This document shows positions 2,965 to 3,147 of a stretch of DNA of 15,128 nt, piece after piece (positions within the stretch are counted from its first letter, which is position 1; every line of letters begins with the position of its first letter). The notes below the pieces were generated by a model that was given only the letters and a program-made list of their open reading frames with translations, ran no database searches and had not been told where the DNA came from. Source of the stretch: a virus (taxonomy: Duplodnaviria > Heunggongvirae > Uroviricota > Caudoviricetes); the IMG/VR virus record IMGVR_UViG_2663762996_000003, positions 1-15,128 of that record; one strand, 5' to 3'. The position numbers and the translations under genes were made by a program.

Positions 2965-3147
2965 ATGATCATGCTGATTCTCGCGCCTCTGGTGGGCGTG
3001 CTGGGTGCGCTTTTGCTGGCGTATGGTGCCTGGCTGATTTATCCCCCGGCGGGTTTTGTTGTTGCCGGGGCGCTGTGCCTGTTCTGGTCGTGGCTGGTGG
3101 CGCGATATCTCGACCGTACACGGCAGTCTGTCGGCGGAGGTAAATAG
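2965..3147 (+). CDS. Small hydrophobic (2-TM) membrane protein, function unknown
   Basis: 60 aa with two hydrophobic stretches. GAGG precedes ATG 2965, and its stop TAG (3145-3147) overlaps the GTG 3147 proposed as the portal start. Confidence 0.45.

Follow-up and report, generated by a model that had tools for sequence, protein, structure and literature searches.

Between the genes for the large terminase subunit (TerL) and the portal protein, a Caudoviricetes prophage carries a 60-codon open reading frame (ORF) whose standing is, at first sight, ambiguous. The stretch of DNA analysed here, hereafter the window, comprises the 15,128 nucleotides of positions 1 to 15,128 of IMG/VR record IMGVR_UViG_2663762996_000003. 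The first-pass annotation described this ORF as a small two-helix membrane protein wedged into a position where HK97-like packaging modules usually have no gene, and left it as either a moron of unknown function or a chance ORF competing with a portal start at 3056. Two questions follow: whether the ORF, identified below as ymfR, is a gene at all, and, if it is, whether it is a lodger in the late operon or a resident whose product has some business with the portal. Table 1 gives the coordinates of the features discussed.

Table 1. Features in and around the ymfR locus, in window coordinates
Feature	Position	Strand	Basis and remarks
TerL, 577 aa, upstream neighbour	1220..2953	+	Pfam TerL_ATPase + TerL_nuclease; PHROG 9, E=2.4e-194
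ymfR Shine-Dalgarno GAGGT	2956..2960	+	4 nt 5' of ATG 2965; sequence reading
ymfR CDS	2965..3147	+	60 aa + TAG; b1150 identity, PHROG 502, RefSeq 'protein YmfR', dN/dS
Predicted transmembrane helix 1 (residues 2-25)	2968..3039	+	Hydropathy, AlphaFold2; conserved P8, G11, G14, L18, G21, W23
Turn Y26-P27-P28-A29-G30 (family motif Y.PAG)	3040..3054	+	Alignments
Predicted transmembrane helix 2 (residues 31-48)	3055..3108	+	Hydropathy, AlphaFold2; conserved G35, C38, L39, W41-S42-W43
C-terminal tail, variable, net-positive, predicted cytoplasmic, ending Gly-Gly-Lys	3109..3144	+	Charges, variable alignment columns
Spurious 5' portal extension ('TTG 3056 start')	3056..3208	+	Open frame without portal homology; overlaps ymfR out of frame
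Portal Shine-Dalgarno GGAGGT	3136..3141	+	Gly58-Gly59 codons of ymfR; 5 nt 5' of GTG 3147
Portal gene (PF04860), pseudogene	3147..4387	+	GTG 3147 start; G lost at 3209/3210; alignment of relatives, Pfam, PHROG
Direct duplication, 387 nt, left copy (portal 3' end + protease 5' part)	4275..4661	+	Junction comparison
IS4 element, ~50 nt of left end missing	4662..6038	+	Pfam Nterm_IS4 + DDE_Tnp_1; junctions
IS4 DDE transposase, 442 aa	4697-6025	+	Pfam
Direct duplication, right copy	6039-6425		Junction comparison

The physical description of the ORF given at first pass is accurate: the coordinates are exact (ATG 2965 to TAG 3145-3147, 60 codons by sequence reading), the product is strongly hydrophobic, with a GRAVY of 1.16, and the ORF has a ribosome-binding site of its own, a GAGGT located just downstream of the TerL stop codon (TAA 2951-2953). 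The TAACTGAGGTAATTATG context of this Shine-Dalgarno sequence is also present in E. coli, phiP27 and ST64B. The overlap proposed for the other end is equally real; within the pentanucleotide TAGTG, the ymfR stop and the portal GTG (3147-3149) have one base in common, and relatives have their portal start annotated at a GTG that overlaps the ymfR stop. The last ymfR codons (GGC GGA GGT AAA TAG) harbor the portal Shine-Dalgarno sequence, and a purine-rich G-run followed by T(A/G)ATG or TAGTG recurs in most loci of a one-genome-per-species scan; the conserved C-terminal Gly-Gly of the family is thus explained, at least partly, by the portal ribosome-binding site. A rho-independent terminator is annotated inside the SfII homologue; in the window the fold is no better than that of shuffled sequence (z=0.30). 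A length of 60 codons is not beyond chance, since ORFs of 60 aa or more number 73 in the window when both strands are counted, and the case for a gene therefore rests on comparison with relatives.

This comparison identifies the ORF as a prophage copy of ymfR, a catalogued family (YmfR / IPR020297 / PHROG 502). The three family traits are found together: similarity to YmfR, a two-helix hairpin of about 60 aa with a Y-P-P-A-G turn, and the slot between TerL and portal with an overlapping stop. The product is identical to E. coli K-12 e14 b1150 at 58 of 60 positions (97%) and matches PHROG 502 ('membrane protein') over residues 1-55 with E=2.8e-28. An 801-nt query around ymfR finds matches in 1,604 of 5,426 complete E. 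coli genomes, where RefSeq gives the order 'terminase large subunit', 'protein YmfR', 'phage portal protein'; TerL, ymfR and portal also follow one another in phiP27 (L37), ST64B (Sb3), SfI/SfII/SfIV, phi467, Yersinia YeP1 and Klebsiella phage ST101-KPC2phi6.3. The check proposed with the first description, conservation in syntenic prophages, comes out in favor of the ORF, which occupies the same slot in relatives; a protein search returns 166 clusters at 90% identity, mostly of 60 aa, from Escherichia, Salmonella, Shigella, Citrobacter, Yersinia, Hafnia, Klebsiella, Enterobacter and Buttiauxella.

In terms of selection, codon-level comparison of 32 loci (281 pairs) gives a median dN/dS of 0.30, and of 0.24 for residues 1-46, values that point to purifying selection on ymfR. 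Its frame is the sole one of the six that lacks stop codons in all 20 divergent homologues. Fifteen residues (M1, L6, P8, G11, G14, L18, G21, W23, Y26, G30, G35, C38, L39, W41 and S42) are invariant in an alignment of 28 sequences that are 58-97% identical to the YmfR of the window. Taken together, frame conservation, dN/dS and synteny mark ymfR as a genuine gene. Two antisense ORFs (2950-3237 and 2969-3121) were also considered and rejected, neither being conserved in homologues.

The family extends well beyond the enterobacterial members. A profile search of 1.84 billion representative proteins yields 394 clusters (clustered at 50% identity) at E<=1e-3, mostly of 50-70 aa, whose common motif, GAW.Y.PAG, is conserved down to about 35% identity; the 'membrane protein' found in the same slot of Burkholderia phi644-2 aligns to the family profile with a probability of 92%. 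Among phages with flanks that are 70-80% identical, ymfR is 97-99% identical in nucleotides. Constraint at the nucleotide level was rejected as the reason for this near-identity, which is better explained by overlapping recent recombination blocks, since the Klebsiella homologue, which is more distant, is only 66% identical in ymfR against 73% in its flanks. Complete E. coli genomes reach at best about 91% identity to the window across the portal. A literature search retrieved no functional study on YmfR or its homologues. As a gene, ymfR is already known; what is mildly new is that the pairing of the hairpin with the portal is deep, tight and portal-specific.

YmfR is predicted to be a helical-hairpin protein of the cytoplasmic membrane of about 60 residues. 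The proposal of a two-helix membrane protein is upheld by hydropathy and by an AlphaFold2 model (27-sequence alignment, mean pLDDT 73) in which predicted helices 2-25 and 27-57 are separated by a break at Y26/P27. The only charged residues are R47, D50, R51, R53 and K60, leaving the first 46 positions uncharged. As all positive charges are C-terminal and distant homologues add charged N-termini, we infer an N-in/C-in topology that would place the Y-P-P-A-G turn in the periplasm. Neither Pfam nor NCBIfam holds a family for YmfR, both giving only sub-threshold noise, and ten distant homologues are likewise without a Pfam match. The PADLOC defence-system models give no family at E<=1, a PDB sequence search with the YmfR family profile gives no match at E<=1, and Foldseek, run with the AlphaFold2 model against BFVD, retrieves generic helical hairpins only, the best at E=1.2. 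Nothing in Pfam, NCBIfam, PADLOC, PDB or BFVD discriminates among the functional readings of YmfR.

The genomic neighborhood is far more informative. A ymfR-type gene lies directly 5' of the portal gene in 116 related loci (80 viral, 30 genomic and 6 metagenomic), a count that covers the related loci examined with portal identification. All six distant representatives located on their own contigs directly precede a PF04860 portal gene, which they abut or overlap. In a scan of one genome per species across Enterobacterales and Halomonadaceae, 30 of 30 loci have the order TerL, hairpin, portal, and in most of them, several Halomonadaceae included, the portal alignment starts at the last base of the hairpin stop; the portals of these Halomonadaceae loci are only 37-40% identical. 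A second scan, of viral contigs, was seeded with a subset of distant members, as the alignment of 20 distant members is too diverse for a locus scan; the downstream ORF is a PF04860 portal in 80 out of 80 cases, and hairpin stop and portal start overlap by 1 nt in 57, by 4 nt in 17, and are otherwise arranged in 6. The pairing with PF04860 portals and the stop/start overlap thus persist where the portals are only 20-40% identical. Upstream, the neighbor is a TerL of the PF03354/PF20441 type in 76 of 82 loci; in one locus (L204) the upstream TerL is of the Terminase_3 type, and in another (L181) the hairpin gene immediately follows a 166-aa ORF carrying a Gp77 fiber-tail adaptor domain, which in turn follows a 488-aa ORF without a Pfam match.

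The divergence of YmfR tracks the portal and not TerL: over 74 loci, a partial Mantel test gives r(YmfR,portal|TerL)=0.43 versus r(YmfR,TerL|portal)=0.11. Individual genomes display the same association. In phi467 and Serratia prophages, TerL is only 35-38% identical to that of the window while the portal is 73-90% identical, and ymfR is kept; in SfV, TerL is 98% identical, the portal is unrelated (28% identical), and ymfR is absent. The statement that HK97-like modules usually lack a gene here is correct for HK97, SfV and Pseudomonas phage D14E and incorrect for the large group of the P27/ST64B/SfII type. D14E, whose portal is 59% identical, has no ymfR and its TerL stop directly overlaps the portal start; HK97 has no gene in the slot either and is arranged in the same way. 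As both phages do without it, YmfR cannot be a core component of assembly. Co-inheritance of ymfR and portal could reflect the lack of a neutral crossover point within a 1-nt overlap. Tight overlaps are common throughout these operons, and such coupling is not unique to the ymfR-portal pair.

Our overall reading, to which we assign a probability of roughly 0.55, is that ymfR is a resident hairpin gene of the late head/packaging operon in a large HK97-type group, with an accessory role linked to the portal, and not an inserted moron. Ribosomes that finish YmfR would re-initiate on the portal GTG (termination-reinitiation coupling), so that YmfR and portal would be made together from the late transcript, late in infection. 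Located at the inner membrane, YmfR might then assist the portal, or the initiation of proheads, as an accessory factor, and this factor would be dispensable in some lineages, given that HK97, SfV and Pseudomonas D14E lack ymfR. The more specific proposal that YmfR is an accessory membrane factor for portal/prohead initiation in the manner of T4 gp40 is drawn by analogy; it is the function we favor over the others considered, yet by itself more doubtful than not. Bolder still, and in our judgment rather unlikely, is the idea that YmfR-like hairpins are an unrecognised and widespread accessory of HK97-type head assembly, a membrane-embedded partner coupled in translation to the PF04860 portal, by which the portal ring would be tethered or nucleated at the inner membrane. 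What lends these proposals interest is that a hairpin without a Pfam family is nevertheless almost always linked by an overlap to PF04860 portals and moves with the portal in module recombination; this pattern is stronger than usually appreciated and makes a portal-linked membrane role a testable hypothesis.

The alternative that survives best, improbable as we find it, is that the late operon merely houses ymfR as a moron or host-interaction gene, its product being an inner-membrane protein that aids the lysogen or, like HK97 gp15, blocks the entry of superinfecting DNA. Small membrane proteins are the usual effectors of superinfection exclusion, and PHROGs files PHROG 502 under 'moron, auxiliary metabolic gene and host takeover'; moreover, ymfR is missing from the otherwise related modules of HK97, SfV and D14E, and it is intact here and in e14 while the adjoining portal is broken. 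Morons, however, have their own promoter and terminator, an atypical composition and a patchy distribution. A simple consensus scan, which weak promoters may escape, detects no sigma-70-like site on the + strand in 2500-2965, and a simple scan detects no terminator between ymfR and the portal. The GC3 of ymfR (0.67) is that of its neighbors TerL (0.65) and portal (0.64). Although HK97, SfV and D14E lack it, ymfR accompanies the portal throughout the 116 divergent loci, its slot and portal overlap being conserved across very divergent phages, whereas morons are typically sporadic. Furthermore, YmfR has no PADLOC match, e14 ymfR RNA behaves like that of other e14 lytic genes, and the intactness of ymfR is weak evidence because decay of the prophage is recent, as judged from the 99.93% identity among five assemblies. 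The moron offered as one of two options at first pass is thus disfavored, and residence in the operon is preferred.

A late role for YmfR as a holin-like, antiholin-like or membrane-depolarising protein, adjusting when lysis occurs or switching off host membrane functions during packaging, is quite unlikely. Its size, its two transmembrane helices, the Gly/Ala-rich helix 1 and the basic C-terminal tail do resemble class II holins and pinholins, and a few low-ranking Foldseek neighbors are labelled holin, but all Foldseek matches have E>1, no holin family in Pfam or PHROGs matches, and the C-terminal tail has little length and little charge. Homologues do not conserve the Met1/Met3 pair, and there is thus no dual-start motif. 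The gene also lies outside the lysis cassette, related contigs having separate holin or SLT lysozyme genes upstream of HNH and TerS.

No better placed is the reading of ymfR as a leader ORF, in which its translation would deliver ribosomes to the weak portal GTG and set portal dosage, the peptide itself being incidental. The 1-nt or 4-nt overlap seen in 74 of 80 loci, a portal Shine-Dalgarno sequence embedded in the last ymfR codons and a C-terminal Gly-Gly conservation accounted for by that sequence are all as this reading would have them. Against it stands a strong constraint on the amino acids themselves, with a dN/dS of 0.24 in the transmembrane core and a motif kept to about 35% identity, and HK97 and D14E obtain the same coupling from the TerL stop without ymfR.

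The conflict over the portal start finds its explanation in the portal gene of the window. Aligned with E. coli BS15R-A, phiP27, ST64B and the Klebsiella phage, the window lacks one G at 3209/3210; at the deletion site, CTGGCGGAT has become CTG-CTGAT, with the gap column at 3208. As a result, the portal frame that opens at GTG 3147 is left after codon 21, and reading on in it leads to a stop at 3279-3281, while the body of the portal continues in the next frame to 4387, a frame that is open back to TTG 3056. Restoring the G yields a 413-aa portal without stop codons. The resulting 443-aa ORF matches PHROG 12 only from residue 52, which corresponds to nt 3209, the site of the frameshift, and its Pfam match begins at residue 77; residues 1-51 have no portal homology in Pfam or PHROGs. 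Four IMG/VR contigs are 99.93% identical to window positions 1-4284 in ungapped alignment, which makes the deletion a genuine mutation instead of a sequencing error; the same portal deletion is found in L006-L009. Programmed frameshifting was also considered and rejected: relatives have one uninterrupted frame, no slippery run is present at 3205-3212, and the locus has an IS4.

The competing portal start at 3056 is, on this alignment evidence, an artefact of the portal frameshift. That the small ORF arose by chance, with the portal truly starting at TTG 3056 and reading through it, can be discounted for practical purposes: a 443-aa ORF does span 3056-4387 and 60-codon ORFs are common in the window, but the first 51 residues are not portal, all relatives start the portal at the GTG over the ymfR stop, stops interrupt the portal-body frame inside ymfR in each of the homologues checked, and the small ORF is conserved under purifying selection (166 clusters, dN/dS of about 0.3, the only open frame in 20 of 20 homologues). 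No relative has a portal gene that starts upstream and runs through the region. For annotation, this means that ymfR is to be kept as real, that the portal start is GTG 3147, and that the portal is to be recorded as a frameshifted pseudogene instead of a 443-aa protein from TTG 3056.

The portal lesion is accompanied by a second one, the IS4 element located at the junction of portal and protease. Frameshift and IS4 together show that the prophage is decaying, and the decay is recent since five assemblies share the 4.3-kb segment in its entirety at 99.93% identity. Most likely, then, the ymfR of the window persists intact as a passenger while the prophage decays.

The closest counterpart among known systems is ymfR of the cryptic E. 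coli K-12 prophage e14 (b1150), which follows the terminase remnant aaaE after the same 11-nt gap and overlaps the portal remnant beeE by the same 1 nt; it differs in nothing material from the window copy, and both reside in defective prophages. The K-12 gene is labelled 'IPR020297 domain-containing protein YmfR'. The gene order of e14 is also given in PMC11541549. Upon an SOS-inducing treatment, K-12 ymfR mRNA rises by about 4.5 log2 units along with other e14 genes (PMC10012262). Deletion of e14 ymfR in K-12 gives no phenotype (PMC9145139), which is uninformative as e14 is defective; the same paper wrongly names YmfR a terminase-family protein.

The order TerL, ymfR, portal is likewise that of phiP27 L37, ST64B Sb3, SfII gp3 and the SfI/SfIV equivalents ('putative integral membrane protein', PHROG 502). 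Nucleotide identity of ymfR to the window is 97-99% in phiP27 and ST64B, and across the 801-nt region the Sf phages reach 89.8-89.9%. The portals of all these phages are intact, unlike that of the window, and the relationship is mosaic, with TerL 71-81% and mid-portal 70-78% identical. Further away, Burkholderia phi644-2 gp3 and the Halomonadaceae and metagenomic homologues are hairpins of 50-70 aa with the pattern G..G...GAW.Y.PAG..V.G placed directly before a PF04860 portal; they differ in being only 30-57% identical, many of them with a charged N-terminal extension, and the family of the upstream terminase can differ.

Several GenBank records label the gene 'head-tail joining protein W'. 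YmfR, a hydrophobic hairpin with no Pfam match and no PDB match at E<=1, is unlike lambda gpW, a soluble protein of head completion; the label is a mis-annotation derived from position, and the present result flags such mislabels in public records. Like ymfR, both gpW and SPP1 ORFs 3-5 are positioned between terminase and portal, without homology to it. The SPP1 ORFs 3, 4 and 5 are dispensable short ORFs lying between essential capsid-assembly genes (PMC6316719). Morons of the HK97 gp15 type are, as predicted for YmfR, small inner-membrane proteins encoded among virion genes, but the promoter and terminator and the composition of a moron are not seen for ymfR, and its distribution is patchy only in so far as HK97, SfV and D14E lack a gene that otherwise keeps company with the portal.

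The comparison with T4 gp40 is of another kind, the proposed likeness being a functional analogy between small membrane-associated phage factors acting with the portal at the inner membrane. Searches of Pfam, NCBIfam, PADLOC, Foldseek and PDB find no sequence or fold similarity of YmfR to gp40 or to any characterised protein, and no sequence family in Pfam, PHROGs or NCBIfam covers both. T4 gene 40 is not adjacent to gene 20, and we know of no HK97-type phage for which membrane-bound prohead initiation has been shown. In T4, gp40 is a membrane-associated chaperone needed for the membrane-bound gp20 portal initiator (PMC9958956), and it is the one precedent we can cite for a phage factor of the membrane acting on a portal. 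Should YmfR turn out to play a comparable part, membrane-associated prohead initiation of the gp40/gp20 kind, to date documented for T4, would be common among temperate phages of Proteobacteria, and ymfR offers an inexpensive, clearly delimited way to ask whether such a membrane helper serves HK97-type portals.

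The end of ymfR, the gene for a 60-aa two-helix membrane hairpin lying between those for the large terminase subunit (TerL) and the portal, contains a GGAGGT that encodes the conserved C-terminal Gly-Gly of the YmfR family and doubles as the portal Shine-Dalgarno; these bases thus act both as coding sequence and as a ribosome-binding site for the portal gene that follows. This double role may explain the conservation of Gly-Gly in the otherwise variable tail of YmfR. The portal gene of the window is itself a pseudogene: a TGG is short of one G, and because of this loss the frame opened by the GTG at 3147 stops at 3279-3281. 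Four IMG/VR contigs (L006-L009), 99.93% identical to window positions 1-4284, carry this deletion too.

Features of the window around and downstream of the ymfR-portal junction
Feature	Window positions	Remarks
GGAGGT, ymfR Gly-Gly codons and portal Shine-Dalgarno	within 3133-3149	
Portal pseudogene	3147-4387	frameshift at 3209/3210
IS4 element and flanking direct duplication	4275-6425	IS4 right end at 6038
IS4 transposase	4697-6025	442 aa
Direct duplication on both sides of IS4	4275-4661 and 6039-6425	387 nt, 3 mismatches

The duplicated segment flanking IS4 comprises the 3' end of the portal gene and the 5' part of the protease gene. The element lacks its first ~50 nt, and its hairpin loop (AATCCGGAAAC...GTTTCCGGATT) is inverted relative to two of the contigs, L007 and L009, in which CCCGGTGGTG is followed directly by an intact IS4 left end. 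Either the DNA has truly been rearranged in the window, or the assembly has introduced an artefact.

Variants of ymfR and the portal are found in other loci as well. In a second prophage copy of Shigella flexneri SFBU0723 (L106, CP182557.1 4691771-4696949), ymfR is frameshifted: the match covers 179 nt, with no intact ORF left, while TerL and the portal retain full-length alignment, and ymfR can therefore decay on its own. At L177:2480-4210 (viral contig IMGVR_UViG_3300023211_000079), the portal encoded after a YmfR-like gene has 577 aa and is a fusion, with the PF04860 portal at residues 51-384 and a C-terminal Acb1 anti-CBASS domain at 430-575 (E=3.4e-39).

Several public records carry labels that bear on this region. 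The ymfR ORF is named "head-tail joining protein W" in the GenBank phage records PQ793804.1, ON470584.1, ON470603.1 and ON470580.1 (H35, H39, H45 and H55), a name apparently taken from where the ORF lies, between the terminase and portal genes as in lambda. YmfR bears no similarity to gpW and is instead a membrane hairpin. The record of phage SfII (L207, NC_021857.1) places a putative rho-independent terminator at 2370-2419, within the ymfR coding sequence; the corresponding RNA of the window (2973-3022) is no more stably folded than shuffled sequence (z=0.30). Enterobacterial prophage DNA as in the window, at 95-99% identity, also occurs in the 1,764-bp OR844959.1 (H54), named "Enterococcus phage Efm 3-10", and in a MAG contig assigned to a "Bacillota bacterium" (L097, JAEWTL010000102.1), probably through contamination or mislabelling.

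Comparison with known phages places ymfR within a mosaic. Window positions 2921-3276, spanning ymfR and about 130 nt at the 5' end of the portal gene, make up an island in which the window, phiP27, ST64B and an E. coli prophage share 93-100% nucleotide identity. The TerL genes of the latter three are 71-81% identical among themselves, and the middle of the portal gene (3277-3816) falls into two types, 70-86% identical, with the window and phiP27 on one side and the E. coli prophage and ST64B on the other. Recent recombination blocks differ from pair to pair and all overlap at ymfR, which marks a mosaic crossroads where the terminase module meets the head module.
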